From contig JAJRSK010000064.1 of NCBI GenBank assembly GCA_024278835.1, positions 19,101 to 83,100 on the forward strand: 64,000 bases of DNA. The letters are read 5' to 3'. The position numbers were made by a program, and so were the translations under genes. The notes beneath the pieces were generated by a model. It had not been told where the DNA came from and did no database searches. It saw only the letters and a program-made list of their open reading frames with translations. Positions 974-55,017 of the stretch are shown here, in pieces; within the stretch, counting starts at the first letter, position 1, and every line of letters starts with the position of its first letter. Origin of the DNA: Campylobacterales bacterium (GTDB lineage: Bacteria; Campylobacterota; Campylobacteria; Campylobacterales; QNZT01).

Positions 974-1733
974 TTATTTTGAGCAAGAATTTGATCTAAG
1001 ATACTATGAGATGGACAATGTAGCACATGCTACACCTGTCACTATCTTGACACTACTTCAAGAGACTGCAGCAGATCACTGTTTATCTGCGGGGCATAGT
1101 TTGTTTGACCTTGTAGATAACAATCTTGGGTGGGTACTTCTCTCAGGCATGATGCAGATGGAGAGATATCCATCCTATAAAGAGAAGATAACGATAAGAA
1201 CATGGATTTCAAAATATCACTCCATTAGAGGAATACGAGAAAATCTTATCTATGATGAAGAGGGTACTATCATCGGCCGAGCCAAAGGTCTATGGCTTTT
1301 TTATGATATAGAAAGACGAAGACCCACAAAGATTCTTAGTGATTTTAAAGAGACTTGGTCTTGGGATGAAACACAATCTATCAGTTGCGATATCATGAAA
1401 AAACTTGAATCGATAGAATGTGCCGCAGATGCTAAAGAGTTCAAAGTAAATATGTATGATACTGACACAAATAAGCATGTCAACAATATCCGTTATTTAC
1501 AATGGGTTATGGAGTCAGTTCCTGAGGAGATTTTAGAGAACTACTATTTGCATACTATCGATGGTCGATTTATCTCTGAAGCACAGTATGGTGATACCAT
1601 CGTATCTTCTATAAAACAAGGAATCGAGGAAAACAGTTTTTTGCATGCCATACATTTAAAAGGAACTGACAAGTTGTGTGCTTTAGCAGAAACAATATGG
1701 AGAAAAAAGAAAAATGATCTCTTCTGCCAATAG
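963..1733 (+). CDS. acyl-ACP thioesterase family protein
   Basis: 256 aa. A double hot-dog layout: YYEMDNVAHATPVTILTLLQETAADH at the N-terminus and a second half with MYDTDTNKHVNNIRYLQW. Confidence 0.7.
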   Translation: MMNNYFEQEFDLRYYEMDNVAHATPVTILTLLQETAADHCLSAGHSLFDLVDNNLGWVLLSGMMQMERYPSYKEKITIRTWISKYHSIRGIRENLIYDEEGTIIGRAKGLWLFYDIERRRPTKILSDFKETWSWDETQSISCDIMKKLESIECAADAKEFKVNMYDTDTNKHVNNIRYLQWVMESVPEEILENYYLHTIDGRFISEAQYGDTIVSSIKQGIEENSFLHAIHLKGTDKLCALAETIWRKKKNDLFCQ

Positions 1734-1766
1734 AAAAAGTTCTATAAAGAATAAAGAGAGAAAAGT

Positions 1767-2156
1767 ATGATTTTAATCCTTCTGTTAATGGTACTTGCAC
1801 TGCTACACTTTTATTGGGCGCTGGGTGGGAAACATGGCCTTGATAAAGCGTTGCCTGCAGATGAAAATAGCAATAGATTACTCAATCCTAGTCCACTGCT
1901 GAGCCTCATCGTTGGTTTAGTTTTACTAAGTTTTACATATATAGCTTATAAGCTTCATATTGGGGAAACATTGTCAATTATTGTAAATGCAGGATATGGA
2001 CTCTCAGCACTTTTTTTCTTACGCGTAATCGGAGATTTTAGAACTGTAGGATTATTTAAAAAAGTGAAAAATACAGAGTTTGCAACATATGATACTTGGC
2101 TATATATACCTCTGTGTCTATTTATTGCGATTAATTTTTTACAATTAGTACTTTAG
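1767..2156 (+). CDS. DUF3995-like small integral membrane protein
   Basis: About four predicted TM helices. The N-terminal LHFYWALGG motif is characteristic of DUF3995. Confidence 0.55.
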   Translation: MILILLLMVLALLHFYWALGGKHGLDKALPADENSNRLLNPSPLLSLIVGLVLLSFTYIAYKLHIGETLSIIVNAGYGLSALFFLRVIGDFRTVGLFKKVKNTEFATYDTWLYIPLCLFIAINFLQLVL

Positions 2157-2193
2157 TCTATATAGTTATCATATCAAAAAAAGTAGGAATATA

Positions 2194-2871
2194 ATGAAAA
2201 GAGTACTTATCACAGGTGGCAACAAAGGTATAGGCTTAGCATTGACTAAAATGTTTGTAGATTTAGAGTATGAAGTCGTTGTTATCGCGCGTGATTTTGC
2301 AGGATTTGTCTATGCGGAGAAAGTCACCTGTATCGAGTATGATTTAACAGATGTAGCAAATATCCCAAAACTTATCTCTTCTATTGGTCAAGTGGATATT
2401 CTTATCAATAATGCAGGGGTGATGTACTCCTTGCCTTTTGATAGTTACCCATCCGAAAAAGTGCAAACTATACTCAACCTCAACCTCGAAGCACCGATAA
2501 AACTGATAGAAGAGTGTTGCAAACTTGGTACAACGCGTGTGGTGAACAATGCTTCTATCGCTGGTGAGATAGGACATCCAGATATCTGGTATGGTGTGAC
2601 AAAAGCAGGAATCATCAATGCCACAAAAAGTTTTTCTAAGGTATTTCAAGGAAAGGTTATTATCAATGCTATAGCAGCAAGTCCTGTGGAGACAGATATG
2701 TTAGAGACGATACCATTAGAGAGAAGAGAAGCATTTTTAAAGACAGTCATCTCCGGGCGTTTTGCCACAGCTGAAGAAGTTGCAAAAACGATGCTTTGGT
2801 TAGCCACAGAATCACCCGAATATATCAATGGCACGACGATAGATATCAATAATGGCTCATATCCTAGATAA
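2194..2871 (+). CDS. SDR family NAD(P)-dependent oxidoreductase
   Basis: TGGNKGIG glycine-rich dinucleotide motif, NNAG motif and Y-x3-K (YGVTK) catalytic motif. Confidence 0.85.
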   Translation: MKRVLITGGNKGIGLALTKMFVDLEYEVVVIARDFAGFVYAEKVTCIEYDLTDVANIPKLISSIGQVDILINNAGVMYSLPFDSYPSEKVQTILNLNLEAPIKLIEECCKLGTTRVVNNASIAGEIGHPDIWYGVTKAGIINATKSFSKVFQGKVIINAIAASPVETDMLETIPLERREAFLKTVISGRFATAEEVAKTMLWLATESPEYINGTTIDINNGSYPR

Positions 2872-4243
2872 TAAGAGCCTTCTTCCAAACCACCGAAAAT
2901 ACTTCCACAGCCTCCGCAATCCCCTCTTCACTAAACCCACCAAATCCCATCCGTATCGCTTCAAACTCTCCACCACAACGCTCTTTTGCAAAGTAGAGTT
3001 TGATGCTTTTTTCTTTTGCTAAAGTTTTGAATTTTTCCCAGTCAAACGCTAGGGTAGGATTTATGAGTATCGCCAGTCCACCACCTTGTGAAACTATCTC
3101 CATTGTATCGCCTAAGAGTCTTTTGAGTTCATTCCTCATGAGATTATGTTTTTTCTTGTTTAGTATTCGAATTTTACGCACATGTCTATCCCAGTGTCCC
3201 TGTGCCATAAAGTGTTCTAGTGTCTTCTGTGTAATCAGTGAGACTTTGGGAAAATAGAAATCAAAACTATCATGATAGCCTGCTAAGAGATGCTTGGGTA
3301 AGACCATATAACTCACTCTTATCGCAGGTGAGAGAGACTTGGAAAATGTTCCCATGTAGATAACGCTATCATACTTATCTAAGCCTTGAAGTGCGGGAAT
3401 AGGGCGGTTTTCATAAGAGAGTTCGCTGTCATAGTCATCTTCTATGATGAGTCCATTGATGCTTTGGATATGCTCTAATAAAGAGAGACGATTTGCTATG
3501 GGCATGGCTACGCCTGTAGGGTATTGGTGGGAGGGAGTGATATAGACGATTTGGGCAGGTGAATCTTTGAGTGCATCTATCACGATACCTTTCTCATTGA
3601 CCTCTATCTTTTCTATCTCATATCCATACTCTTCAAAAGCTCTTCTTGCGACATGGTATCCTGGGCTTTCCATGCCTAGTATTTGATACTTATCTTTAAC
3701 AAGTTTTGCTAAAAGCCCCATTGACTCTCCGAAGCCACTTGTGATAACTATCTGTTTTGCATGACATCTTACCCCTCGTGAATCGATGAGATAAGAGGCA
3801 ATCTGCTCTCTTAACCCCTCTTCTCCTTGTCCATCATGATAAGCCCCAAAGTCCAGTGACTCGTCTATCACTTTTGTATAGATTCTTTTCCAAAGCTTGA
3901 GAGGAAAAGAGTCTTTAGAGAGTTGAGCTGGAAAAAAATCATAGCGATATATCTTTTTCTCTTCTTTGGATGTTTGAGAAAGTTTTTCACCTGCTTTAAA
4001 CCCATCAAAGTACATATCTGTGACAAAGTATCCTCTCTTTGGACGACTCTCGATATAGCCCTCTGCATAAAGTTGGTTGTAGCTGGACGCAACGGTATTT
4101 TTACTGAGGTTGTAAAGTGTGGCTATCTTTCGTATAGAGGGGAGTTTTTGCCCTACGGAAAAGTTGCTAATGATATCTTCTTTGAGGGCTTGGTAAAGTT
4201 GGATATGTAGTGGTGTGCTACTTTTTTCATCGATTAGATACAA
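2864..4243 (-). CDS. MocR/PdxR-like regulator (GntR-type wHTH fused to a PLP-dependent aminotransferase-fold domain)
   Basis: 459 aa. N-terminal GntR HTH (LPSIRKIATLYNLSKNTVASSYNQLYAEGYIESRPKRGYFV). The C-terminal fold-type-I aminotransferase region contains the FSKSLSPAIRVSY lysine motif. Confidence 0.8.
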   Translation of the reverse strand: MYLIDEKSSTPLHIQLYQALKEDIISNFSVGQKLPSIRKIATLYNLSKNTVASSYNQLYAEGYIESRPKRGYFVTDMYFDGFKAGEKLSQTSKEEKKIYRYDFFPAQLSKDSFPLKLWKRIYTKVIDESLDFGAYHDGQGEEGLREQIASYLIDSRGVRCHAKQIVITSGFGESMGLLAKLVKDKYQILGMESPGYHVARRAFEEYGYEIEKIEVNEKGIVIDALKDSPAQIVYITPSHQYPTGVAMPIANRLSLLEHIQSINGLIIEDDYDSELSYENRPIPALQGLDKYDSVIYMGTFSKSLSPAIRVSYMVLPKHLLAGYHDSFDFYFPKVSLITQKTLEHFMAQGHWDRHVRKIRILNKKKHNLMRNELKRLLGDTMEIVSQGGGLAILINPTLAFDWEKFKTLAKEKSIKLYFAKERCGGEFEAIRMGFGGFSEEGIAEAVEVFSVVWKKALII

Positions 4244-38608: not shown

Positions 38609-39086
38609 AGCTAATTCCTTTTTCTGTTAATAAATTATTTAAGTGTGCTTCTGAAGCTTGTATACCAGCAGATGACTCTAGTGCTAATAGTTTTGTATAA
38701 AGTGGTTTTATCACTTCAAGGGCTTTTGTGTTTGGCTTGATTCTCACTGAATAAAAACCAATGATATTGTTTTGGTTATCATATGAGGGAGTTACATTGG
38801 CAAAAACCCAATAAAAGCTACCATCTTTAGAGAGGTTTTTTACATAAGCAAAGATTTCTTTGCCGCTGTTGATCTTGCTCCAAAGTAGCTTAAAAATCAA
38901 TTTTGGCATATCTGGATGTCTGATGATACTATGAGGTTTTCCTAGTAATTCATTCTCAGTCATCATAGACATATCCATAAATATTTCATTGCAATAGGTA
39001 AGTTTTCCTGTTTTATCTGTTTTTGAGATGATAAAATCATTTTTTTTTATCACCCTTTCTTGTGTGCTAGGAGGAATGGTACTCAT
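38574..39086 (-). CDS. stand-alone PAS domain protein (CetB/Aer-N-terminal-like energy-taxis sensor)
   Basis: [21 protein letters not shown]...[16 protein letters not shown]...[10 protein letters not shown] is the Aer-type PAS signature. Its 3' end overlaps the MCP start by 35 nt. Confidence 0.75.
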
Positions 39087-39158
39087 GGGTATCCTTTTGA
39101 TATTGATATAGTATGCTATAATATCGGTATATGGGAATTTTATTTTAGAGGGAGTGGG

Positions 39159-40124
39159 ATGTTAATAGATGGGCATGGTAGAAAAGTAGATTATTTGAGA
39201 GTATCAGTGACGGAGCGGTGTAACTTTCGTTGCCAATATTGTATGCCTGATAAGCCATTTTCGTGGGTACCACGAGAAAATCTTCTCTCGTTTGAGGAGT
39301 TGTTTTTGTTTATCAAAGCAGCTATGGATGAAGGCATCACAAAGGTACGTATCACAGGTGGTGAGCCACTACTGCGTGAAGGCTTGGATAAGTTTGTAGG
39401 GATGATATATAAGCATAACAATGATGTTGACTTGGCTCTTACGACCAATGGTTACCTTTTGAAACAAACAGCGCAGAAGCTTAAAGATGCAGGACTTAAA
39501 CGACTCAATATTTCACTTGATTCTTTAAAGCCAGAAATTGCACAAAAAATTGCACAAAAAAATGTTTTAAAAGATGTGTTAGAAGGGATTGAAACTGCTT
39601 TAAAAGTGGGATTAAAAGTCAAAATAAACATGGTGCCTTTAAAAGGTATCAATGATGATGAAATAGTCGATATCTTGGATTTTTGTAAAGCGCGTGGTAT
39701 AGAAGTACGTTATATCGAATATATGGAAAATGCTCTGGCTAGTACGGAGATAAAAGGGCTTTTAGGCAAAGAAATCCTTGATAAAGTCAAAGAAAAATAT
39801 GTCATAAATAAAGTAGGCCGAGAGGGTGCAAGTCCATCATTTTCCTATCTTACTGATGATGGTTATAAGTTTGGTTTGATTGACCCACACAAACATGACT
39901 TTTGTGAAGATTGTAACCGTATCCGACTTACTGCAGAGGGTAATCTCATCCCTTGTCTTTACTTTGATGAAGCGATGAGTATCAAAGAAGCAGTGAAAGA
40001 GGGTGATGTCCCAAAAGCCGTAGAAGTACTACGCCAAGTACTCAAAGATAAACCAGAGAAAAATAGATGGGATGAAGATGATAACGAAAGTTCTGCTAGG
40101 GCGTTTTATGAAACGGGCGGATGA
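39159..40124 (+). CDS. moaA: GTP 3',8-cyclase (molybdenum cofactor biosynthesis)
   Basis: [21 protein letters not shown] radical-SAM cluster motif, ITGGEPLLR, and a C-terminal CxxCNRxRLTAEG second cluster. I prefer the internal ATG at 39159, which has a GGGAG SD. Confidence 0.9.
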
Positions 40125-43550: not shown

Positions 43551-44198
43551 ATGAGAAGAAGTGGTTTTACAATGGTTGAGTTGATATTTGTGATTATTAT
43601 CATAGGGATATTATCAGCAGCGGCAATTCCTAAGTTTGGGGATATTAAAGATAGATCAAAGATAAATAGCGAATATGCAGCGTTGTCTTCATTGGATGGT
43701 GCGATTACTGCAGCGATTGAGTTTCAGCAGGAAGATTATGACAATATGGCAGTTTTATGGCATGATGAAGCAGATCCAAGTACTGCAACATATGCCAGTA
43801 TTAATACAAATAAAGATGTATTAGCTAAAGTCTTGAAAAAAGGTGAAACTTTAAAGATTGTTGCTTATGCTGATTTGGATAATAATGGTACAGCAACAGA
43901 TAGTAGTACTGCCTATGATATGTTATTTATAGAAGGTACCGCTTCTAGTCATACAAATGGTGTAAAAAAAGAGATAGATGTTTCTGGTAAACCTGATAAG
44001 AATGATTTTTGGGTTTTCAATACATCAGCAGTTGATATAAATATTTCCGACTCAACATCAAATACTTTTTCACCAACAATGATTGAGAGTGGTGAATTAA
44101 AATTAATTGATTCAAATAGTTCGGTTACGTATAGTACTAACATTTCATTAGTACAAGAAGATGGTACAACCATTACTTCAACAGTAGTAGCACCTTAG
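43551..44198 (+). CDS. type IV pilin (MshA-like), paralog 1
   Basis: Class III signal and N-methylation motif MRRSGFTMVELIFVIIIIGILSAAAIPKF (G/F cleavage site, Glu5). It shares the C-terminal motif GKPDKNDFWVFN with the other paralogs. Confidence 0.85.
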   Translation: MRRSGFTMVELIFVIIIIGILSAAAIPKFGDIKDRSKINSEYAALSSLDGAITAAIEFQQEDYDNMAVLWHDEADPSTATYASINTNKDVLAKVLKKGETLKIVAYADLDNNGTATDSSTAYDMLFIEGTASSHTNGVKKEIDVSGKPDKNDFWVFNTSAVDINISDSTSNTFSPTMIESGELKLIDSNSSVTYSTNISLVQEDGTTITSTVVAP

Positions 44199-44210
44199 TA
44201 TTACCATAAA

Positions 44211-44240
44211 AGTAAGTACTTAAGAGTTTAAGTACTTACT
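44211..44240 (+). terminator. perfect 13-bp stem hairpin after pilin paralog 1
   Basis: AGTAAGTACTTAA-GAGT-TTAAGTACTTACT. No U-tract follows, so it may be an attenuator or an mRNA-stabilising hairpin. Confidence 0.45.
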
Positions 44241-44271
44241 CCCCTCATTACTCTTTCTAAAAAGGACTATT

Positions 44272-44979
44272 ATGAAAAGATCTGCATTTACTATGGTTGA
44301 ACTTATTTTTGTTATCGTTATCATCGGTATTTTGGTGGCAACTGCTATTCCCAATTTTAATGATAGTGAAAACCGTGCCAAAATCAGTAGTGAACTTGCT
44401 AGTTTTTCTAGCTTGGATAGTGCTGTTTTTGCAGCATCAAAGTTTCAGCAAGAAGATTATGGTGATATAAAAGTCAATTGGCATCAGTATGCTGATATGA
44501 ATGATACAACAACCAATTCTACTGAACTTAGAACACATTATCAAAATATCAATAAACAAAAATTAGTACTTTCATCCGTTGTCAAAAAGGCTGAAGTGTT
44601 AAAAATCGTTGGTTTTTATCCTATCATTGACTGTACAGGACGACGTAGCTGGAATGATGCGCTGTATTGTGACACTTTGATTCTTGAATCTTCTGCTACG
44701 GACGCAATCGTTGGGGTATCATATCCTACCAAAGCAATCAACAATGATTTAGCAGGTAAACCAGATATGAATGATTTTTGGGTATTCAATCCTAGTGCCA
44801 GAGATATCAATATCTCTAGTTCAAATGCAGATACACCAATCAATACGACAGTCGTCAAAGCGGGAGAATTAAAACTTGTAGATGTCAATGGTACTGACCC
44901 TATTGTTTCCATATCACGTATCCGTATTTCTGGTTTTGCAGGAAATAGTAGTGCTTACTCATTTTATACTGTGCAATAA
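44272..44979 (+). CDS. type IV pilin (MshA-like), paralog 2
   Basis: MKRSAFTMVELIFVIVIIGILVATAIPNF. C-terminal GKPDMNDFWVFN. Confidence 0.85.
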   Translation: MKRSAFTMVELIFVIVIIGILVATAIPNFNDSENRAKISSELASFSSLDSAVFAASKFQQEDYGDIKVNWHQYADMNDTTTNSTELRTHYQNINKQKLVLSSVVKKAEVLKIVGFYPIIDCTGRRSWNDALYCDTLILESSATDAIVGVSYPTKAINNDLAGKPDMNDFWVFNPSARDINISSSNADTPINTTVVKAGELKLVDVNGTDPIVSISRIRISGFAGNSSAYSFYTVQ

Positions 44980-44988
44980 AGGAATTAC

Positions 44989-45630
44989 ATGAAAAGATCC
45001 GCATTCACTATGGTTGAACTTATCTTTGTTATCGTGATTATCGGGATATTGGCTGGGATGGCTGTTCCTAAATTTATGGGTGTCAAAGACCAAGCAAAAA
45101 AAGCAACGGAACTCTCCTCTGCTTCTGCTGTCTCTGTTGCTTTAGAAGCGATTCATAGTACTTGGAGCACAAGTGATGAGGATTTTGATTGGAACAATGA
45201 TGGTGTGGATGACAATATCTCTAAAGAGCTCTCTTATCATGGATATCCTTACGATTTATCGCGTAACAATAACCCTATAGGTGCGCTTATGCGAGGAAAT
45301 AAAAAGAGTACTTTTAAAAACCATGGTGAATTATTAACAGGATTTACAGATGTCGCTTATAGGATATATACAGCCAATGCTTCAGACCCTAGTATGGGTG
45401 TGAAGTTCCCTCTCTCAAAATCTGGTAAGGATACAGAAGGAAAACCAGACAAGAATGATTTCTGGCTTTATGTCGTGGATGCAAATGGTTCGTGTCAAGT
45501 CAAAAGCGATAGAAGCCAAACATGGGATATCATGTCTGGGGATTTTATCCTCATCGATGTCAATGAAACAACACCACTTGACTTTACGAATGATAACCTA
45601 GGGATAGGATTTCGTATCGATTGCAGCTAA
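44989..45630 (+). CDS. type IV pilin (MshA-like), paralog 3
   Basis: MKRSAFTMVELIFVIVIIGILAGMAVPKF. C-terminal GKPDKNDFWLY and a terminal Cys pair (GSCQ...IDCS). Confidence 0.85.
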   Translation: MKRSAFTMVELIFVIVIIGILAGMAVPKFMGVKDQAKKATELSSASAVSVALEAIHSTWSTSDEDFDWNNDGVDDNISKELSYHGYPYDLSRNNNPIGALMRGNKKSTFKNHGELLTGFTDVAYRIYTANASDPSMGVKFPLSKSGKDTEGKPDKNDFWLYVVDANGSCQVKSDRSQTWDIMSGDFILIDVNETTPLDFTNDNLGIGFRIDCS

Positions 45631-45632
45631 TC

Positions 45633-46874
45633 CTACTCGATAGCATCTGCCATCGACCACATCGGTAAAAAGATACCAAGGGCAAGTAGGGTCAAAAAGG
45701 CAGCGATGAGGGCTATCATGATAGGCTCGATGTAGGTGGAGATATTGTCTACCAAGTCGTTGTATTTACTGCTATAGTACTTGTTTACTTTTTCGAGCAT
45801 TTTGTTGAGTGAACCTGAACTTTCTCCCGCTTTTATCATCTGTATGGTGATGTTTTCAAACTGTCCACTCTCTGTAAATCCATCTGTCAAACTTCGTCCC
45901 TCTTCGATAGCCTCTTGCATCACTCCAAATCGCTCTCTCATGTAGTCATTTTCTACGATATTTTTAGAGATATCCAAGGCTTTGATGATAGGCACACCGG
46001 AGTTGGTAAGCTTGTCAAAGACAAAGAGAAATCTTCCCGTCATGGAGAGGTGTGTGATACGCCCAAAGAGATAAAGTTTGAGGGAGTATTTATCGATAGT
46101 ATATTTATACTTTTTGTTTTTGTTGTAAAGGGTTTTGTGGATAAATATCATACTTGCGATAGCGATGACAATCACTAGCCCATACTCTTTGACAAATGAT
46201 TCTATACTTAATAGAACTTGCGTAGGATAAGGCAGTTGACTATCATATTCCTCAAACATCTGTTTAAACTGGGGTACAATCATCTTGATGACAGCGACAA
46301 AGGCAGCTATCATGATAGTGATGACGATGAGAGGATAACGCATGGCTTTTTTGAGTTTTTTTCTATTTTCGTGAATTTCATCTAAGATATTGGCAAGTTT
46401 CTCTACGGCTTCTGAGAGTTGTCCCGTCTGCTCACCTAGAGAGATGATAGCAGGAGAGACATTGCCAAGTTCATAAGAAAAATCTTCAAATGACTCTGTG
46501 ATTCCAGAACCAGACTCTATCTTTAGCGCGATTTGTTGGAAAATCTCTTTTGTCTGTTTATGCGTGGTCATCGAGACTATCTCTGTAAAACAATGGTTGA
46601 TAGGGATACCCGCGTCAAGCATGACAGAGAGTTGTCTCAGTGATGCGATGTAAGGTTCTAAAGGGATTTTTCTCTTTAGTGATGAACTAGCAAAAGAGGC
46701 TTTGAGTTTTTCTATCTTTTTAGAAAAAGGTTCGTTGATTTCATCGATAGAGAGCAGAGCACCAAGAGGTTTTTCTTGGAATTTTTTCACCGCTTCTAGC
46801 TTGTGAGAAGATTCTAAAACGATACTGTTTTGTTTCCCCCCCCCAAGTGTGTAGACGATTTCAAAATACTTCAT
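45633..46874 (-). CDS. mshG: type IV pilus / T2SS platform protein (GspF/PilC family, MshG-like)
   Basis: 413 aa with two GspF-type repeats and three TM helices. Its start forms an ATGA overlap with the upstream ATPase gene. Confidence 0.85.
   Translation of the reverse strand: MKYFEIVYTLGGGKQNSIVLESSHKLEAVKKFQEKPLGALLSIDEINEPFSKKIEKLKASFASSSLKRKIPLEPYIASLRQLSVMLDAGIPINHCFTEIVSMTTHKQTKEIFQQIALKIESGSGITESFEDFSYELGNVSPAIISLGEQTGQLSEAVEKLANILDEIHENRKKLKKAMRYPLIVITIMIAAFVAVIKMIVPQFKQMFEEYDSQLPYPTQVLLSIESFVKEYGLVIVIAIASMIFIHKTLYNKNKKYKYTIDKYSLKLYLFGRITHLSMTGRFLFVFDKLTNSGVPIIKALDISKNIVENDYMRERFGVMQEAIEEGRSLTDGFTESGQFENITIQMIKAGESSGSLNKMLEKVNKYYSSKYNDLVDNISTYIEPIMIALIAAFLTLLALGIFLPMWSMADAIE
46836..46844 (-). 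repeat. homopolymeric G9 tract (C9 on the + strand) in codons 11-13 of the platform gene
   Basis: Read directly: ...TTTCCCCCCCCCAAG... encodes Gly-Gly-Gly as GGG GGG GGG in an AT-rich genome. Confidence 0.95.
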
Positions 46875-48541
46875 ATCTTGACGACTCTTAGAACCTCTTC
46901 TAGGGAGGTTGTGCCTTCTAAAGCCTTGGTGATACCATCAATGAGCATCGGTTCGTAGCCATTTTTGACAGCGGCTTCTTTGAGTTCATATCTGTTTTTT
47001 CCTAGGGATATTTGACTAGAGAGAGCATCATCTATCATGAGGATTTCACATATCATGATACGACCATCATAGCCAGAAAAAGCACATTTTGAACACCCTT
47101 CACCACTATAAAAGGTACTGTTTTCTGGGATATATGCCTTGACTTTTGCGATATCGCTGCGTTGGGGTTTGTGCTCTTTTTTACAAAAGGTACATACTTT
47201 TCTGACCAATCTCTGTGTGACGACACCTACGAGTGAATCAGCGATGAGATAAGAAGGCAATCCCATCTGTACCATGCGTGTGATAGCACTTGGTGCGTCG
47301 TTGGTGTGTAAGGTGGAAAAGACCAAGTGACCTGTTAGGGAGGCACCAACCGCAGTAGAGAGTGTCTCTTCATCTCGTGTTTCCCCGACCATGATGATAT
47401 CGGGATCTTGTCGTAAGACGGACCGCAATACATCAGCAAAACCATACCCTATCTTGTCATTTGTCTGCATCTGTTGTACTAGGGGGAGTTGATACTCGAT
47501 AGGGTCTTCGATGGTGATGATTTTGTTTTTGATATCTTTGATGTCGTTGAGTGCGGCGTAAAGCGTGGTGGTTTTTCCGCTTCCTGTAGGCCCTGTGACA
47601 AAGACGATACCATAAGGAGATTTGAGTAAGTCTTGAAATTTTCCCAAGTTTTTTTCACTCATGCCTAGTTGGTCGAGTGTTAAAAGTATCTTTTCTTGAT
47701 CAAGGATACGCATGACGATGGATTCACCATGTAAGGTTGGGGCAGTAGAGAGCCTAAAGTCAAAGTTTCTTCCCATGACATTCATCGAAAATCTTCCATC
47801 TTGAGATTTTCTTTTTTCGGAGATATCAAGATTTCCAAGGATTTTTATCCTAGAGGCTAGGGCATTGTAAACTTCTATATCTAGGACAAATATCTCCCGA
47901 AGTACACCATCCACACGGTTTCTAACAGAGACGTCATATTCATTTGGCTCGATATGCACATCGCTAGCTCCATTGATGATAGAACTTTTTAAGATTTGCA
48001 TGATGAGAAGCATGATAGAACTCTGCTCATTATCTAGTTTGAACTCTTTTGAAGCTATCTCTTGCTTGACTTGGTTCATCAAGACTTGCGCTGTTTCGAT
48101 GATTTCGAGTCTTTCAAAGACGTGTTTGATGTCATGTTTAAGAGAGATGTAAAACTTGATAGGTTTTATGATGATGATATTTTCAAGTGATTCCATCGCT
48201 TCGACGTTGAGGGGGTCAGCCACAGCGATATGGATAAAATCTTCATCCTCTTTAAAGATAATGGCATCGGCATTTTTGAGAAGGTTTAGGGAATAATTTT
48301 TCAGTACAGAAAAGTCGATATCAACACTATAGAGATCTAAAAAAGAGTATCCTAGTTGTGAAGCTAAAATAGTGGCTAAATCTTTCTCAGAAACCAAGCC
48401 CTCTTCGATAAAGATTTCACCTAGTTTTTTAGAAAAGTTACTCTGTTTTTGCACACCCAAGGCATGCATCAATTGTTCATGTGTGATTTTCTTTTGTTCT
48501 ACTAAGATATCACCAAGTCGTAGTTTTGGTCCCATACTCAA
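46871..48541 (-). CDS. mshE: GspE/PilB-family pilus assembly ATPase with an MshEN-type N-terminal domain (MshE-like)
   Basis: Walker A GPTGSGKTTT, Asp/His boxes, a tetracysteine motif (CTFC...CSKC), and an N-terminal tandem RLGDILV...Q / KLGEIFIEEGLV...Q motif. Confidence 0.9.
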   Translation of the reverse strand: MSMGPKLRLGDILVEQKKITHEQLMHALGVQKQSNFSKKLGEIFIEEGLVSEKDLATILASQLGYSFLDLYSVDIDFSVLKNYSLNLLKNADAIIFKEDEDFIHIAVADPLNVEAMESLENIIIIKPIKFYISLKHDIKHVFERLEIIETAQVLMNQVKQEIASKEFKLDNEQSSIMLLIMQILKSSIINGASDVHIEPNEYDVSVRNRVDGVLREIFVLDIEVYNALASRIKILGNLDISEKRKSQDGRFSMNVMGRNFDFRLSTAPTLHGESIVMRILDQEKILLTLDQLGMSEKNLGKFQDLLKSPYGIVFVTGPTGSGKTTTLYAALNDIKDIKNKIITIEDPIEYQLPLVQQMQTNDKIGYGFADVLRSVLRQDPDIIMVGETRDEETLSTAVGASLTGHLVFSTLHTNDAPSAITRMVQMGLPSYLIADSLVGVVTQRLVRKVCTFCKKEHKPQRSDIAKVKAYIPENSTFYSGEGCSKCAFSGYDGRIMICEILMIDDALSSQISLGKNRYELKEAAVKNGYEPMLIDGITKALEGTTSLEEVLRVVKI

Positions 48542-48720
48542 ACACCTTTGAAGTCTTCTCAGGTATTAAAGCACAAAGTATGCCATTAAGTTAAGAGTTT
48601 TGAAAAAAATTAAGTGCGGTTCATCTGCACGTGAGCCCTCTGCTGAAGAGAACTCAGCGTTAGCGTAGACAAAAGAATTTACTTCTTTTGTCGTTAACTT
48701 AAGGGTGCCGGAGGTACCCT

Positions 48721-49341
48721 TTATAGGGAGTTTAGCAGTTCCTGAGCTTCTTGGGATGGGTGCCTTTTTAAAAAGAGGGTGAGTGCTTTTTTTGCGATTT
48801 CATCTTTGCCTAAGGCTTTTTTACTTTTGGCATAGACAATCCAAGGTCGTACTTTTGATTTATTTTTTTTACTCGCTTCTATCGCCCATTTTATTGCTTT
48901 TTGATAGGATTTTTTACTATAGTGGTAGTTGGCGACAGCGATGGTAGCAGAGTAGCTTTGGGATTGGGCTTGATGTTCGAGTAGCTGGTAAAGGCTTTTT
49001 TCATTTGTAGTGACTTTTAAGCCACTTCTTTTAGGTGTGGAGACTTTTTTGACTTCTCTTTTAGGTGGTAAATTTTTTGTAATATTTTCTTCTTTTGTCT
49101 CATTTACTTCAGCTTTTGTGATGATGGGTGTTATGCTTGTGTTGCTTTCTTGTGTTGCTTTGGGAGTCTCATTTTTATCTTCTATCATGATAGGCTTGGA
49201 GAAGTTTAGTGTAGAGATATAGTAGGCAAGTGCCCCTATCATGATAAGGAATAAGATACGCCTATTTCTGGATTTTTTCTTTTGTAGTTTATAACGGTCA
49301 TATTTTTTAACCAATTCATTGAAATCATTATTTAACATCAA
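48721..49341 (-). CDS. membrane-anchored TPR-like protein (MshN-like by position)
   Basis: An N-terminal TM anchor, a low-complexity linker, and a C-terminal TPR-like helical region. Confidence 0.45.
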   Translation of the reverse strand: MMLNNDFNELVKKYDRYKLQKKKSRNRRILFLIMIGALAYYISTLNFSKPIMIEDKNETPKATQESNTSITPIITKAEVNETKEENITKNLPPKREVKKVSTPKRSGLKVTTNEKSLYQLLEHQAQSQSYSATIAVANYHYSKKSYQKAIKWAIEASKKNKSKVRPWIVYAKSKKALGKDEIAKKALTLFLKRHPSQEAQELLNSL

Positions 49342-50131
49342 TCAATCCTATATCTATGGCTGCCATAGTCAATGTCGTATCATCTACTTTATTGTACTTC
49401 TCAAGCCCTCCTCTTTGCGCTATCTCTACGATTTCGCAGACAGTTTTTAAAAGCTTTTTAGCTGTTCTGAAGTTGGCATCTGAGTACTTATAGATAAAAT
49501 CAACTTGTTTTTTATCAAAAGCAGAGACTACTTCGGAGAGATTTTTAGAGAGGAGTCGGTTTTGGATGTAACGGGTTATCTCTTCTTTTTTGAGGTGTTC
49601 TAAGATGATGGTTTTTGTGCTACGGGATTTGAAATGGGGCTTGGCAAGGACATATTCTCCCTCTTTTTTGTGCATGGCGAGGACTAGTTGAAACATTTTC
49701 ATATCGCTAAGTACCCGTAAAAATTCTAACTGGTTTTCTGTTAAAAGCTGCGCTTCATCGATAAAAACAGTATATTCTAAGTTTTTATAATGTTGTTTCA
49801 GGGCAAGGATAAGGGCATCGATGGTCTGAGCATTATGCTCGATAAAAACACCTGCAGATTCGAGCAAGACTTCAAGTAATTCACGCTCGTCAAAGTGGGG
49901 ATTTGGAAAAAACTTAGCGAGTTTGACGCTGTCAGCCCGCTCCTGTACAAACTTGAGTAAAAAACTCTTTCCAGAACCAGGATTACCTAGTAAAAAGGTC
50001 ATAGAGACTTCATGGGCATTAAGCGTTTTTAACAACTCTTTTTTTGCCATCTCAAAGGTAAAGCTATCTATATAACCACTTAAGTCAAAGTCATCTTTAA
50101 AGAGTTCTTTGGCCACTGAAAATTGATTCAT
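49328..50131 (-). CDS. mshM: ExeA-like AAA+ ATPase (MshM-like)
   Basis: Walker A LLGNPGSGKSFLL, Walker B FIDEAQ, and about 270 aa, as for ExeA/MshM. Confidence 0.7.
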   Translation of the reverse strand: MNQFSVAKELFKDDFDLSGYIDSFTFEMAKKELLKTLNAHEVSMTFLLGNPGSGKSFLLKFVQERADSVKLAKFFPNPHFDERELLEVLLESAGVFIEHNAQTIDALILALKQHYKNLEYTVFIDEAQLLTENQLEFLRVLSDMKMFQLVLAMHKKEGEYVLAKPHFKSRSTKTIILEHLKKEEITRYIQNRLLSKNLSEVVSAFDKKQVDFIYKYSDANFRTAKKLLKTVCEIVEIAQRGGLEKYNKVDDTTLTMAAIDIGLIDVK

Positions 50132-50149
50132 CCCGCCCCCCGTTTTGTG

Positions 50150-51592
50150 CTATTGTATCGTGTTGTGACCTACGATGCTACTACGCTCCAATTCTCCTAG
50201 TGAAGGAGTGCTCTCTTCACCAGTAATTAGTTTTGGTGTCATAACTATAATCAATTCGCTCTTAGATTTTACTTTTGTCTTTGATTTAAAGGCAAGTCCA
50301 AGGAGAGGAATATCCCCTAAAAGTGGGATTTTTGTGATTTTATCTTCTACACGTTTTTGTATCAATCCACCTATAATCACCCGTTGGTTATTTTTAACCT
50401 TGATGATGGAAGAGAGTTGTTTTATCTTGATATCAGGGGCTAGGTTGGCATTGCCATCTTTGTCGAGGTGGTTTTTAGATATCTCACTAATAATCGGATT
50501 GATTTTGAGGATGATATGCTTGTCTTGTGTGACTTCAGGTACGATGCCAAGTGTGACACCCACAAAGGTCGAACCTACTTCAAACTGTGGGTCAGAGTGT
50601 ACGACGCCATTGGTCGTGGTGGTGGTCGTGCCTAGTGTATACTTGTAGTTTTTCTCTTCACCTACATTGATGATGGCTGGTTGGTTGTTGAGCGTCAAAA
50701 TCTTTGGATTCGAGACGATACTCACATCTCCCTGGGTTTTTAAGAAGTTGATGAGTCCCTCCATATCAAAGTTATAGCCTAGCATAGAAGCTGGATTGCC
50801 TAGGGTATGGATAAGCGTTCTATCTTCTCCTGCGGCACTTCCTTTTAAAGAGGCTTGAAACTTACTCCAATCTATCCCAGTTGTCTGGTCATTGCTATAG
50901 GTGACTTCGATGATTTTTGCATCGATAAAGATTTGTTTGTGTAATCTCTCTGTGATTTTTTCGATATATTTGGCGATACGTTGGGTCTGTTTTTTAGTCC
51001 CTGTGACGGTGATGACGCCTGCTTCTTGGTTGATAACTGTTTTGTTGGCGTTAAAGCTATCACCTTCTCTATTTAATATGGATTCTATCTCTGCTTTAAT
51101 ATTATCCCATAATTTAAATTCGCTGACAAAGTCAAGTGTGGTAGAACCAGAACCATTTCCTCCGCTGCCACTTGTCGCTCCTGTAGATGAACCGGTGGTG
51201 ATAGTTTTGTTGCTGGTGTTACTTGCTTTTGAAAAGTTGACGTAATCTATATAAAAAGATTGTGTTTTTAGATAGGAGACTTTTAGGACGTTGTTGTCTG
51301 TGAGTGTATAGTAGAGGTTGTTTTCTGTGAGTAAAAGGTCAAGCAAGTCTTCAAGTGAGAAGTCTTTGATATTCATATAAGATATTTTTTTCTTCACCAT
51401 CTCTTTTGTCTTTTCATCTTCAAAAACGATACTCATCTTACACTCTTGGGTGAGATTTTCTAATACATCCAAAATACTCCCGGGGGCAGATTTGGTACTG
51501 TTTACCTTAAATGAAAAAAGATTACTTTGGCAAGTTGCTTGTAAGTGCAAAGTGGAAAAAAGTAGTATGCACGCTATCAATATCTTTCTCAT
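50150..51592 (-). CDS. mshL: secretin (GspD/PilQ family, MshL-like)
   Basis: Signal peptide and the C-terminal secretin domain ...KIPLLGDIPLLGLAFKSKTKVKSKSELIIVMTPKLI. Confidence 0.85.
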   Translation of the reverse strand: MRKILIACILLFSTLHLQATCQSNLFSFKVNSTKSAPGSILDVLENLTQECKMSIVFEDEKTKEMVKKKISYMNIKDFSLEDLLDLLLTENNLYYTLTDNNVLKVSYLKTQSFYIDYVNFSKASNTSNKTITTGSSTGATSGSGGNGSGSTTLDFVSEFKLWDNIKAEIESILNREGDSFNANKTVINQEAGVITVTGTKKQTQRIAKYIEKITERLHKQIFIDAKIIEVTYSNDQTTGIDWSKFQASLKGSAAGEDRTLIHTLGNPASMLGYNFDMEGLINFLKTQGDVSIVSNPKILTLNNQPAIINVGEEKNYKYTLGTTTTTTNGVVHSDPQFEVGSTFVGVTLGIVPEVTQDKHIILKINPIISEISKNHLDKDGNANLAPDIKIKQLSSIIKVKNNQRVIIGGLIQKRVEDKITKIPLLGDIPLLGLAFKSKTKVKSKSELIIVMTPKLITGEESTPSLGELERSSIVGHNTIQ

Positions 51593-52008
51593 AGAACCTC
51601 TTTTTTGACTAGTAAATTTTCAGCTGTTTTTAGTTTTAAAACAATAGTTTTATTTTTTCTCTTTAAAACTACACTATCTTGATTTACTTTAGAAAGCACA
51701 TATCGCGCCACTTTTTGATTTTCTCTATACCAAACACCATTGATAAAGGCTTTTTTGTTAAGAATCATAGAAAGAATGAGTGATTTTTTTCTCTTTTTTG
51801 TCACTTTTTCAGCAAGTTGCTTGTGTTGTTTTTTTGTCATTATTTTCTTATCATGATAGAAAGGATCATACTTGATGTCGAGATTTATAGTGGTTTTTTG
51901 GCTCTCTTGCAAGCGTATCTGATCTAGTGTATGGTTGATTTTTTCTATCATTGAAGTATCTGCATGGGCTATCATGATAGTAAAAAGAAGCAGTAGTAAA
52001 GTTCTCAT
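51589..52008 (-). CDS. small exported pilus biogenesis protein (MshK-like by position)
   Basis: A signal peptide, 139 aa, and overlaps with the genes on both sides. Confidence 0.4.
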   Translation of the reverse strand: MRTLLLLLFTIMIAHADTSMIEKINHTLDQIRLQESQKTTINLDIKYDPFYHDKKIMTKKQHKQLAEKVTKKRKKSLILSMILNKKAFINGVWYRENQKVARYVLSKVNQDSVVLKRKNKTIVLKLKTAENLLVKKEVL

Positions 52009-52640
52009 ATATTGACTCCATAGATAGTGAAGTTGATAGAAAATTGAATCATCCCACTTCCCTCTTCATCAATTTTTTCCATTTGGATATTTTTCACATC
52101 TACGATAAACTGTGTATTTTCTATGAAGTGGAGATACTCCAAGGTACTGTTGTAACTCCCTTTTCCTGAAATTTCTATATACTTTTTAGGGACAATTTCA
52201 CTTTGGTGGATGTCGCTTTTAGAGTCACTGTTTTTGATATAGTCGATGCTGATATGTAGAGTAAGTGACTTTTTGAGGATATCATCTAGGGTAAGTGCCC
52301 AGCGTTTTTCATCAAAATCAGAAATCTCAAGATTGCTTAGTTTGGCATAGAGATAGTTGAGTGAATCTCTGTTTTTTTCTACATCTTCTTTTAGCACGAG
52401 TAACTGCTCTTGTGCTTTTTTAATCTTTCTTTTGATGCTGCGAGGTTGTTTTCGATTGATATCACGATGAAGCTGATCTTGTTGGCTGCTGAGTATCTCT
52501 AACTCTTCATCTTGCCAAGGTGTGATAAACATAAATATAACGGCACCCACTATCATGATAGGCATCAAATAGATAAAAATCTTTTGTGAGATTTTTACTT
52601 TTTGTAAATAACTTTCAAATTCGCTCAACATACTTTTCAT
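52005..52640 (-). CDS. PilO/MshJ-like bitopic pilus assembly protein
   Basis: A single TM helix, then a coiled coil and an alpha/beta domain. Assigned by its position in the cluster. Confidence 0.45.
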   Translation of the reverse strand: MKSMLSEFESYLQKVKISQKIFIYLMPIMIVGAVIFMFITPWQDEELEILSSQQDQLHRDINRKQPRSIKRKIKKAQEQLLVLKEDVEKNRDSLNYLYAKLSNLEISDFDEKRWALTLDDILKKSLTLHISIDYIKNSDSKSDIHQSEIVPKKYIEISGKGSYNSTLEYLHFIENTQFIVDVKNIQMEKIDEEGSGMIQFSINFTIYGVNI

Positions 52641-54121
52641 CTCTTCACCGTTATGATACTTTTGTAAACATCGCTGTTAAGTTTTATCTCATTGGATGTG
52701 ACGCTGGTATACCCCTTACTTAAAAGTGCGGACATAAACTTCGCAATTGTATCTCTCTTGTTTTCGATAGAATAAATCTCAAAATCCATTGCACCTTTAT
52801 CTACCTGTCTGACATTGTCTATAGAGAGTTTATACTTCTTCAAAAGGTTATTTACCGTTAAAAACATCGGTGTATATTTTGAGTCTTTTGATTTTAAGGC
52901 GAGTAGAGAAGAGGCGATATTTTGTAACTTATGCAAGTCTGTATCTATCTTTTTTTGCTGTTGTTTTGTACTTTTTAACTCTTTTTCTACCGCTTTTTGC
53001 CTCTTTTTGAGTTTTGAAGTTGCTGACGAAAGGGTGCTTAGTTGTGCTTTTAAAACACTATTTTCTTTCTCTGTGGCTGTCATCTGATACTGTTGATAGA
53101 GTGGGTAGGAAGAGAGTATCATCAGTGAAGCAACACTAGAGAGGGCAAATTTTCCTATTTCACTTTGGTAAAAAGGGGCTTTTTTGTTAAAGATAGTAAA
53201 GTTATGTTGCTGTTTACCTTCTTCTAGTTTGTCTTGGATATACGACGCTGCGATAGTATCAAGTGCGAGGATGTCATCAGAGGCTAAAAAATCTAGCGCT
53301 CTATAGGTGACATCAGGGAAGTAGGCACGTGCGGTCTCTTCAAGATAGGGAATCATTTGATTATCAAGAGAGAAAAATATGCGTTCAACTTGGGTGAAGC
53401 CATAAACATTTCTATTGTGCAGAGCGATATTATTTGTTTTTGAGAAAAAGTTTTCAAAAGTTTTTTGTATATAATCATACAAATCATACTCATGAAGTTC
53501 GTAATTCTCTTTACTTAGACCTTTTTTAAGTAGTATCTCTTTTAACTTCTCTGTATCTGTGAGGATATTTAAGTTTTCTAACTCTTTGACCATGTCCCTA
53601 AGAGAGAGGGTTTTTTTGGATGTGACGTACGCTCCCTCTTTGTAAAAAGTAGAAAAAGATTCATCATCGTCTATGGTAATGAAGAGGTCATTTTTCTTAT
53701 CAAGAATCTCATGTTTATAAAGTGTTTCAAAAACCAAAAAAGGAAGCACTAAAAAGTCTATATGTTTGATGGTAGAAAAGCTTTTTTGATACTTCTCTTC
53801 TATGGCTAGTGTATCGATTGCAAAGGATTCAACAAGCTTTAAATCCCCCACAGATGCCTTTTTTGTCTCATAAGATATCTTGTGGATTTTACTGGCATCA
53901 AGTCCTATCTCATCATACATCTTGAGTTCAGCTGTGACTAAAAGTTCTTGGGGCGTGAGTGGCTTGTCTAGTTTAAAATTGTGTGTGATGATGTCGTTAA
54001 AGTTTAATCGTGCACCGATAGGATTTTTCTTATTTTTTAGTGAAAATTCCCCACATGTTTTATCATGATAGGAAAAGTTTTTACCATGTTGTAAATCTAA
54101 AAAATTTATCTGTTTCGCCAT
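52637..54121 (-). CDS. PilM/PilN-fusion-like (MshI-like) pilus assembly protein
   Basis: 494 aa: a cytoplasmic N-terminal domain, a central TM helix (FALSSVASLMILSSYPLY), a coiled coil and a C-terminal domain. Assigned by its position in the cluster. Confidence 0.45.
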   Translation of the reverse strand: MAKQINFLDLQHGKNFSYHDKTCGEFSLKNKKNPIGARLNFNDIITHNFKLDKPLTPQELLVTAELKMYDEIGLDASKIHKISYETKKASVGDLKLVESFAIDTLAIEEKYQKSFSTIKHIDFLVLPFLVFETLYKHEILDKKNDLFITIDDDESFSTFYKEGAYVTSKKTLSLRDMVKELENLNILTDTEKLKEILLKKGLSKENYELHEYDLYDYIQKTFENFFSKTNNIALHNRNVYGFTQVERIFFSLDNQMIPYLEETARAYFPDVTYRALDFLASDDILALDTIAASYIQDKLEEGKQQHNFTIFNKKAPFYQSEIGKFALSSVASLMILSSYPLYQQYQMTATEKENSVLKAQLSTLSSATSKLKKRQKAVEKELKSTKQQQKKIDTDLHKLQNIASSLLALKSKDSKYTPMFLTVNNLLKKYKLSIDNVRQVDKGAMDFEIYSIENKRDTIAKFMSALLSKGYTSVTSNEIKLNSDVYKSIITVKR

Positions 54122-54124
54122 CTC

Positions 54125-54589
54125 TTATCTCTCTATCATGATACTCCCTGAGTAAGGCATGATTTTTATCTTTCGTTTTGTATTTTTATACTCTATATCA
54201 AGTAATATCGGCGTTTGGATGAGATTATTTAATTTATAGTTATTCAGATAGGGGCGACCCAAGGTATCAAAACAAATCTTTTTAGTGCTGAGGGTGGATT
54301 TCATCTGATATTTTCTAGCAGACTTTGAACTTTTTTCATCAGATTTGATGTTGGCGGTGTCGATACAGGTTTTTTCATAGAAGTTATCACGCCAGCTAAT
54401 ATCGTTAAAATCATAGTTATCGTAGATAAAAGCATCCATCTGTTTTTCTTTTATTTTCATCGTGATAAAGTTGATGTCAGTTAAGAGTCTGTTATCGGGT
54501 ATACTCATCACCGCCGCACCCGATAAAATGCCTAGTATAACGATGACGAAGATAAGTTCGACTAAAGTAAAGGCTTTTTTCATCATCAT
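54125..54589 (-). CDS. minor (pseudo)pilin with a prepilin-type N-terminal methylation domain
   Basis: MMMKKAFTLVELIFVIVILGILSGAAV. Confidence 0.75.
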   Translation of the reverse strand: MMMKKAFTLVELIFVIVILGILSGAAVMSIPDNRLLTDINFITMKIKEKQMDAFIYDNYDFNDISWRDNFYEKTCIDTANIKSDEKSSKSARKYQMKSTLSTKKICFDTLGRPYLNNYKLNNLIQTPILLDIEYKNTKRKIKIMPYSGSIMIER

Positions 54590-55017
54590 GGCCTTTGCAT
54601 CGTGCGTCTAGTGAGCCTGATGGGACGCGTATTTTTAGGATGGGCATCATTACTGCTGACAATGACTTCCATCATCACCATGCCATTTGACTCTTCTGTT
54701 TGGATGATTTTTTCTCTATCACAACCAGCAGTTTTAAAAAGATAGTAGTTAGTGATGTTGATATCTGCAAAAAAACGCTTGTCATCAGAGACGATATGAA
54801 TCTCATTAAGACATCCTCCACTTCTATCATGAGTAGATATGCCAAAAAGGGCTAGTTCTATGGCACTTTGCATAAAGAGTTCTGCACTCTCTTTGAGATA
54901 AAGATCTTCAGTTTGTTTGGTAGTGACGGAGGCGTACTTCATCATGATAGTGAGTATGGTGGATAAAATCACCATAAAAAGTATCACTTGAATCATCCCA
55001 AAACCTTTTCTCATCAA
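54586..55017 (-). CDS. minor pilin-like protein (degenerate prepilin N-terminus lacking Glu5)
   Basis: MMRKGFGMIQVILFMVILSTIL. It overlaps the genes on both sides by 4 nt. Confidence 0.5.
   Translation of the reverse strand: MMRKGFGMIQVILFMVILSTILTIMMKYASVTTKQTEDLYLKESAELFMQSAIELALFGISTHDRSGGCLNEIHIVSDDKRFFADINITNYYLFKTAGCDREKIIQTEESNGMVMMEVIVSSNDAHPKNTRPIRLTRRTMQRP

Follow-up and report, generated by a model that had tools for sequence, protein, structure and literature searches.

The window, by which we mean the whole 64-kb stretch of DNA analyzed here, carries a cluster of type IV pilus genes in which one gene contains an in-frame run of nine G residues. The features of the cluster, by window position, are:

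43551 to 45630, plus strand: three tandem prepilin-like genes (215, 235 and 213 aa), convergent with mshG
45633 to 46874, minus strand: mshG/pilC/gspF-type inner-membrane platform gene (413 aa, two T2SSF domains)
46836 to 46844, minus strand: run of nine G residues within mshG (C9 on the plus strand)
46871 to 48535, minus strand: mshE-type assembly ATPase gene (554 aa as called in contigs L015 and L016; longest open reading frame to 48541), with MshEN c-di-GMP-binding and T2SSE domains
48721 to 49341, minus strand: TPR protein, MshN-like
49328 to 50131, minus strand: AAA_22 ATPase, MshM-like
50150 to 51592, minus strand: MshL-type secretin, a borderline match (TIGR02519, 249.1 bits against a cutoff of 250.2)
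51589 to 52008, 52005 to 52640 and 52637 to 54121, minus strand: three further genes, completing the upstream biogenesis block (48721 to 54121)
54125 to 56572, minus strand: four small genes, three of them with prepilin N-methylation motifs, candidate minor pilins
56569 to 60412, minus strand: large LamG-repeat (MshQ-like) gene, split in the window into open reading frames of 668 and 636 aa
58424 to 58429, minus strand: second variable G-run, in the MshQ-like gene (G6 in the window, G5 in contig L017)

Read along the minus strand, the order is the MshQ-like gene, the four small genes, the three further genes, the secretin, the MshM-like and MshN-like genes, mshE and mshG. An MshEN-type ATPase lies directly beside a platform gene, and the MshL-type secretin (borderline) and MshM- and MshN-like genes are present as well, which identifies the locus as an MSHA-type type IV pilus cluster with a predicted platform protein of the MshG/PilC/GspF family. 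The MshEN domain of the ATPase is readily recognized (PF05157, E = 2.6e-10), as is its c-di-GMP motif (NF053729, 61 bits against a cutoff of 38).

The identification of the platform gene as mshG/pilC-like, made in an earlier note on this DNA, is borne out by the two T2SSF domains of its product (PF00482, E = 3e-48). The protein aligns over its full length with the GspF, HofC and PilC models, scoring under their equivalog cutoffs, and has the features expected of the family, namely two PF00482 domains in a polytopic inner-membrane protein of approximately 400 aa. An AlphaFold2 model (50-sequence alignment; mean pLDDT 83.6, and 73–79 over the first 30 residues) is helical, with long helices that presumably span the membrane, and has a small beta-beta-alpha-beta domain at the N-terminus. 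The ATG of mshG (46874-46872) and the TGA of the mshE-type gene that precedes it share the 4 nt ATGA, an overlap that the earlier note had described. At its other end, the stop codon of mshG faces that of the convergent prepilin-like gene at a distance of 2 nt. As mshG is the last gene of its operon and its neighbor is convergent, a frameshift in mshG would be non-polar, in agreement with the proposal that it would leave the upstream genes unaffected.

The G9 tract occupies nt 31-39 of the mshG reading frame and makes up codons 11-13 (GGG GGG GGG, encoding Gly-Gly-Gly). On the minus strand the gene opens with ATG AAG TAT TTT GAA ATC GTC TAC ACA CTT GGG GGG GGG AAA CAA, which is translated as MKYFEIVYTLGGGKQ; the presence of the tract, in frame and thus in the ON configuration, is confirmed by both sequence and translation. 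It is the sole G/C run longer than 6 nt in the window, where runs of 4, 5, 6, 7, 8 and 9 nt occur 136, 23, 2, 0, 0 and 1 times. A T-run of nine lies at 39040-39048. The GC content is 38%. Independent or first-order Markov models predict approximately 0.04 G/C runs of at least 9 nt per window. G8 matches, of which 2 were observed, averaged 0.15 in dinucleotide shuffles, and a count of 2 was reached in 1 of 100 shuffles. Glycine codons in the long open reading frames of the window are mostly GGT (41%) or GGA (27%), with 17.8% GGG and 15% GGC. The claim that such a run is very unlikely by chance therefore holds for the window, but a genome of a few Mb could contain one or two by chance, and the rarity of the tract is suggestive rather than decisive. 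Contingency loci are characterized by a G/C homopolymer of at least 7-8 nt within an open reading frame or promoter, and the tract is of this kind. A scan of the window against Rfam gave no matches, so that no RNA element accounts for the site.

The N-terminal pattern MKYFEI.Y..GG is conserved among homologues down to 50% identity, and therefore the tract is translated. About half of 118 full-length homologues have Gly-Gly at the tract position, and none of the 118 has Gly-Gly-Gly within its first 25 residues. All 11 of the closest homologues (81–96% identity) have Gly-Gly and measure 412 aa, one residue less than the protein of the window. At the DNA level, the tract site reads as follows:

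Window: CTT GGG GGG GGG AAA
L006 and L007 (96% amino acid identity): CTA GGG GGA AAA (G5)
L008: CTT GGT GGG GAA
L009: CTA GGA GGG GAG
L014: CTA GGT GGG GAG
L001: CTG GGA GGT CAA
More distant relatives: GGC GGC, GGC GGT or GGA GGA

In these orthologues the run is thus at most G5 or is interrupted, whereas established contingency loci keep their tract at one gene across strains or species. No G/C run of at least 7 nt was found in approximately 85 kb of related loci, and scans of genome and metagenome contigs returned species-level or more distant relatives, none with the tract. We see in this no sign of selection for maintenance of the tract. The earlier note had named orthologues with interrupted glycine codons and invariant length as evidence against a switch; the relatives conform to the first part of this description, with short or interrupted runs and no long tract. 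They carry the names Sulfurospirillum sp. or Campylobacterales MAGs, suggesting a Sulfurospirillum-like organism and, probably, a free-living host. In one relative (L014), mshE carries an A7-to-A8 frameshift and mshG a 23-nt deletion, so that the pilus locus appears expendable in a related lineage. Two shorter homologues (P0037 and P0124) were considered as OFF alleles and rejected: one belongs to a different lineage (approximately 84% identity at the DNA level) that has lost 23 nt and is frameshifted in an A-run, changes that have no connection with the G tract, and the other is cut by a contig end.

In the AlphaFold2 model, residues 11-13 form the turn of a hairpin between strands 2-10 and 14-22. 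As the tract encodes this predicted turn, an extra glycine should be tolerated and is plausibly harmless; on this premise G6 and G9, and probably G12, would be ON lengths. A change of one nucleotide, in contrast, shifts the frame and abolishes the product in silico. The predicted truncation products are 19 aa (G8), approximately 20 aa (G11), 43 aa (G7) and 44 aa (G10). The expectation that a 1-nt change truncates the platform protein early is therefore supported, with products of 19 aa (G8) or 44 aa (G10) in place of the approximately 15 codons first suggested. Were the tract G7 or G10, translation might in principle restart from a TTG that lies in frame at +10, yielding a protein of 409 or 410 aa with a scrambled first strand.

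Such a restart product, together with the general knowledge that long homopolymers can make RNA polymerase slip, would be compatible with the three GGG codons acting on the RNA, by slippage during transcription or by frameshifting or pausing of the ribosome, rather than through changes in DNA length. However, mshG is in frame and needs no recoding, the run is absent from all orthologues, and the alternative frames offer no open reading frame of any length; we consider recoding extremely unlikely.

A very close relative of the window was found through an exact match to the 213-aa neighbor of mshG. The matching Logan contig (L015; 4,308 bp, SRR32233993) aligns to window positions 44299-48609 without a mismatch; its one gap, of 3 nt, corresponds to G6 in the contig (CTT GGG GGG AAA) and G9 in the window. 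Outside the tract, the two thus have the same mshG and mshE sequences. A second contig from the same sample (L017; 9,716 bp) differs from window positions 49892-59608 by 7 SNPs, all within 52706-54200 (4 synonymous, 3 conservative), and by one 1-nt indel, and a third (L018; 2,239 bp) is identical to the window. Searches for exact matches to mshE, to the secretin and to a DsbD-like gene pointed to SRR32233993 as the sole sample with same-strain contigs, and one additional search gave no match. As the 7 SNPs also separate the two sources, the sources represent distinct, very close populations. The comparison of tract length across strains that the earlier note had called for thus shows variation on an otherwise identical 4.3-kb background, but it comprises two observations, G6 and G9, that are both ON.

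The 1-nt indel lies in the second G-run of the cluster (58424-58429), which is G6 in the window and G5 in L017. In the window the MshQ-like gene, of approximately 1,280 codons, is frameshifted at this run and reads ...GETISIGGRSNIQ followed by a stop codon, leaving the 668-aa and 636-aa open reading frames; in L017 it is intact, reading through as ...GETISIGGDQTSNN... Over the 16.3 kb that can be compared, these two indels are the only ones. Both fall in G/C runs of at least 6 nt (2 of 3 such runs, the third being an invariant G6 at 50136-50141), while none of the 53 A/T runs of at least 6 nt differs in length (Fisher p = 0.002) and shorter runs are free of indels.

As length differences at homopolymers may arise in assembly or sequencing, the true tract in the window could be other than G9, for instance the G6 of L015. 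Relative to the Logan sample, the window has G's in excess at each of the two indels (+3 and +1); the exact 413-aa MshG (P0122) is recorded from one NCBI contig only, and the lengths compared are those of assembled contigs. On the other hand, the absence of A/T-run differences speaks against an artefact. So does a scan of every homopolymer of at least 5 nt in the window for ±1 frameshifts, which returned one mid-gene frameshift in the whole 64 kb, that of the MshQ-like G6, next to ordinary junctions of adjacent genes; the assembly is thus not generally error-prone at homopolymers, and the scan and the invariant A/T runs together rule out a general error of this type. Moreover, a frame-preserving +3 over-call would be atypical for any platform, and the 7 SNPs indicate distinct populations instead of two assemblies of one set of molecules. 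As a control, two assemblies of the closest relative (L006 from NCBI and L007 from Logan) show 100% identity throughout 5,084 bp, a stretch that takes in their G5 run. We therefore regard an artefact as distinctly unlikely, and take the G9 tract to be real, specific to this strain and the result of a very recent lengthening of the G-rich Gly-Gly codons at the predicted beta-hairpin turn.

Because its length differs (G6 versus G9) in otherwise identical sequence, the poly-G run in mshG behaves as a mutational hot spot for slipped-strand mispairing. Tracts of this type are well characterized in Campylobacter jejuni, in which the modal length of poly-G/C tracts is nine, a G9 tract switches from ON to OFF at 1.2e-3 per division, insertions prevail at G8-G9 and deletions at G11, and nearly all events are 1-nt steps, with few of -2 and none of 3 nt (Bayliss et al., 2012, PMC3401435). 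The 3-nt difference between G6 and G9 argues against a switch when set beside these steps. OFF alleles were also sought through the truncated calls that they are expected to give (385 aa from GTG codon 29; 329 aa from M85), and none is on record, which is a weak negative. The suggestion that the mshG tract is a phase-variation switch thus stands as far as the tract itself, its length variation and the restriction of indels to G/C runs are concerned, but the two alleles observed for the strain are both in frame and the tract is not conserved in relatives.

A simpler reading is that a single slippage or duplication event added one glycine codon in a tolerant loop, with no meaningful switching. 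The in-frame state of G6 and G9, the position in the predicted turn and the orthologues without any tract all agree with a neutral indel. Hypervariable G:C tracts are, furthermore, reported to be lacking in the free-living species Arcobacter butzleri, Sulfurimonas denitrificans and Wolinella succinogenes, in which extra DnaQ-type exonucleases possibly restore repair (Miller et al., 2007, PMC2147049); given this reported absence from the free-living epsilonproteobacteria studied to date, Campylobacter-like behavior cannot be assumed here. Yet a G9 run is physically prone to slippage in all systems studied, the one further indel that separates the two sources likewise sits in a G-run, where it breaks the frame, and a single +3 event would itself be unusual by the C. 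jejuni record. We consider a neutral indel without switching possible but, on the whole, unlikely.

The frameshift of the MshQ-like gene in the window means that the pilus may not be under selection in this strain. If the pilus were already disabled by the MshQ-like G6, the mshG run could have crept from G6 to an equilibrium of approximately G9 under relaxed selection, and be in frame by chance (about 1 in 3). This would fit the MshQ-like gene being intact in L017 but broken in the window, the gain of G's by short tracts in C. jejuni and its modal G9, and the lesions of mshE and mshG in L014. It is at odds with the lack of other damage in mshG and mshE; MshQ may, in addition, be dispensable for assembly, and the G6 of the MshQ-like gene could be a reversible OFF state. 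Drift after loss of the pilus therefore seems quite improbable to us.

Weighing these readings, we judge it probable, if only by a little, that the G9 tract is a nascent, de facto contingency locus, as opposed to a conserved, evolved switch. The relatives suggest a series from GGT GGG or GGA GGG through GGG GGA (G5) and GGG GGG (G6) to GGG GGG GGG (G9), in which synonymous purification of GGT or GGA to GGG would have yielded G5 and then G6. Insertion-biased slippage may then have extended G6 to G9, either in three steps via OFF intermediates or in a rare +3 event. The present G9 allele would be ON, with the extra glycine tolerated in the turn, and would now throw off G8 and G10 variants that are OFF and make no platform protein. 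Such variants would be unable to assemble the pilus, without polar effects on other genes. By analogy with known tracts the switching rate may be high, and the loss of piliation in OFF variants could conceivably have adaptive value. A bolder extension of the nascent-locus reading takes both G-runs of the cluster as poly-G contingency loci in the making (mshG G6 to G9, ON/ON and by now of a length that could switch; MshQ-like gene G5/G6, ON/OFF), which would give combinatorial stochastic control of pilus assembly and composition in a free-living lineage, outside the host-associated Campylobacter and Helicobacter in which such loci were believed to cluster; we put this forward tentatively and think it unlikely to hold in full.

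Poly-G phase variation is textbook knowledge for Campylobacter, Helicobacter and Neisseria and is usually linked to host adaptation. Were the G9 of this environmental Sulfurospirillum relative real and variable in length, it would instead document the birth of a contingency locus, in which a Gly-Gly pair was purified to a G-run and lengthened to the equilibrium of approximately G9 seen in C. jejuni, and it would provide a testable handle on stochastic switching of MSHA-type pilus attachment in environmental populations. Should the tract be stable, the finding reduces to a one-codon polymorphism. The case draws its modest interest from three things: tract lengths of G6 and G9 in sequences that otherwise match exactly, a frameshift at another G-run of the cluster, and a host that is probably free-living. 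A search of the literature for poly-G phase variation in Sulfurospirillum gave no paper.

The closest parallel in mechanism is with the poly-G/C loci of C. jejuni and Helicobacter. These belong to the same phylum, and share with mshG an intragenic G9 in a gene for a surface structure, an early stop upon a 1-nt change and, between near-identical genomes, variation in G/C and not in A/T runs. The lineage is also generally without MutL and MutH, as stated for the epsilonproteobacteria at the level of the class (Miller et al., 2007, PMC2147049). In contrast to these loci, the tract described here occurs in a probably free-living host, is absent from all relatives, has been seen in the in-frame lengths G6 and G9 only, and is the one tract of at least 7 nt in 64 kb.

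In Neisseria, homopolymers in pilC1/pilC2 and pilE (C8) make type IV piliation phase-variable (PMC5610331). There, too, a G/C homopolymer lies inside an open reading frame for type IV pilus biogenesis, and slippage by 1 nt turns piliation off. The details of the pilC G-tract reportedly derive from work by Jonsson and colleagues in 1991. Neisseria PilC is a PilY1-like tip/adhesin protein, and the platform homologue of Neisseria is PilG; despite its name, Neisseria PilC is thus not homologous to the PilC/GspF/MshG platform protein. The Neisseria tracts differ further in that they are conserved across strains and their switching has been shown experimentally.

Another comparison is offered by the 5' poly(A) tract of inlA in Listeria monocytogenes, where a frameshift leaves an 8-aa peptide, OFF alleles have been observed, and the tract was proposed as a means of efficient and reversible inactivation (Orsi et al., 2010, PMC2831843). 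Like the mshG tract, it is a strain-specific homopolymer very close to the 5' end of a gene whose product is exposed on or builds the cell surface, and of that product a tiny peptide would remain (8 aa, versus 19 or 44 aa here). Unlike it, the inlA tract is poly(A), resides in a Gram-positive organism with mismatch repair and has OFF alleles on record.

With respect to the pilus itself, the locus resembles the Vibrio cholerae MSHA cluster (mshIJKLMNEGF/mshBACDOPQ) in gene content and order, sharing the MshL secretin, the MshM- and MshN-like proteins, MshE with its MshEN domain, the MshG platform, a LamG-containing MshQ-like protein and several prepilins. It departs from that cluster in the placement of its pilin-like genes, three of which lie downstream of mshG in convergent orientation, and its MshL match is 1 bit under the curated cutoff. 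We know of no poly-G switch in the V. cholerae MSHA system, which is controlled via binding of c-di-GMP to MshE. In the locus described here, the mechanism is classical, poly-G phase variation being well known, and it is the locus that is strain-specific.

Comparison of the window with L017, a near-identical Logan contig from SRR32233993, identified a second variable G-run in the MSHA-type pilus cluster:

58424-58429 (about 1180-1185 in L017), minus strand, variable G-run, G6 in the window
56569-60412, minus strand, LamG-repeat (MshQ-like) gene of roughly 1,280 codons, split by this G6 in the window

The G6 frameshifts the MshQ-like gene into ORFs of 668 and 636 aa, whereas L017 carries G5 at the corresponding site and the gene is intact. 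It is the sole mid-gene homopolymer frameshift within the 64 kb window. Two other homopolymers lie upstream of start codons:

50136-50141, minus strand, G6, 4 nt 5' of the ATG of the mshM-like gene (...AACGGGGGGCGGGATG)
39040-39048, T9, the longest A/T homopolymer of the window

The former is probably part of the ribosome-binding site of the mshM-like gene, and it is unchanged in the SRR32233993 contig. The T9 run is found about 12 nt upstream of a TTG-start ORF (39060-40124, plus strand), beside an AGGAGG-like motif.

For the pilus platform gene mshG, frameshifted (OFF) alleles with a tract of G7 or G10 were considered. In these alleles the main frame opens 4 nt past the ATG and holds a TTG at +10 (window 46865). 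Initiation at this codon could yield a product of 409 or 410 aa in which the first beta-strand alone is replaced, and such a restart might make one class of OFF alleles leaky. Downstream, mshG faces a convergent unit:

43551-45630, plus strand, tandem array of three prepilin-like paralogues (215, 235 and 213 aa), convergent on mshG (45633, minus strand)

As the facing stop codons of the last prepilin-like gene and mshG are only 2 nt apart, there is no space for terminators between the two units. A search of the whole window (1-64000) against Rfam returned no family at the gathering threshold, and hence no tRNA, rRNA or riboswitch match.

Over the 16.3 kb compared, the window differs from the SRR32233993 contigs by 7 SNPs, all within 1.5 kb (52706-54200). 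Six are located in an unassigned 494-aa pilus gene and one in the adjoining prepilin-like gene; four of the seven are synonymous, and the remaining three are conservative. The clustering suggests either a small recombined segment or a gene that is locally diverse. In a relative at about 84% DNA identity (L014, Logan contig from SRR26701687, positions 1128-3939), both mshE and mshG are disrupted, the former by one A too many in an A7 run and the latter by the loss of 23 nt at roughly codons 62-69, which may reflect pseudogenisation of the pilus operon, or else an assembly error.
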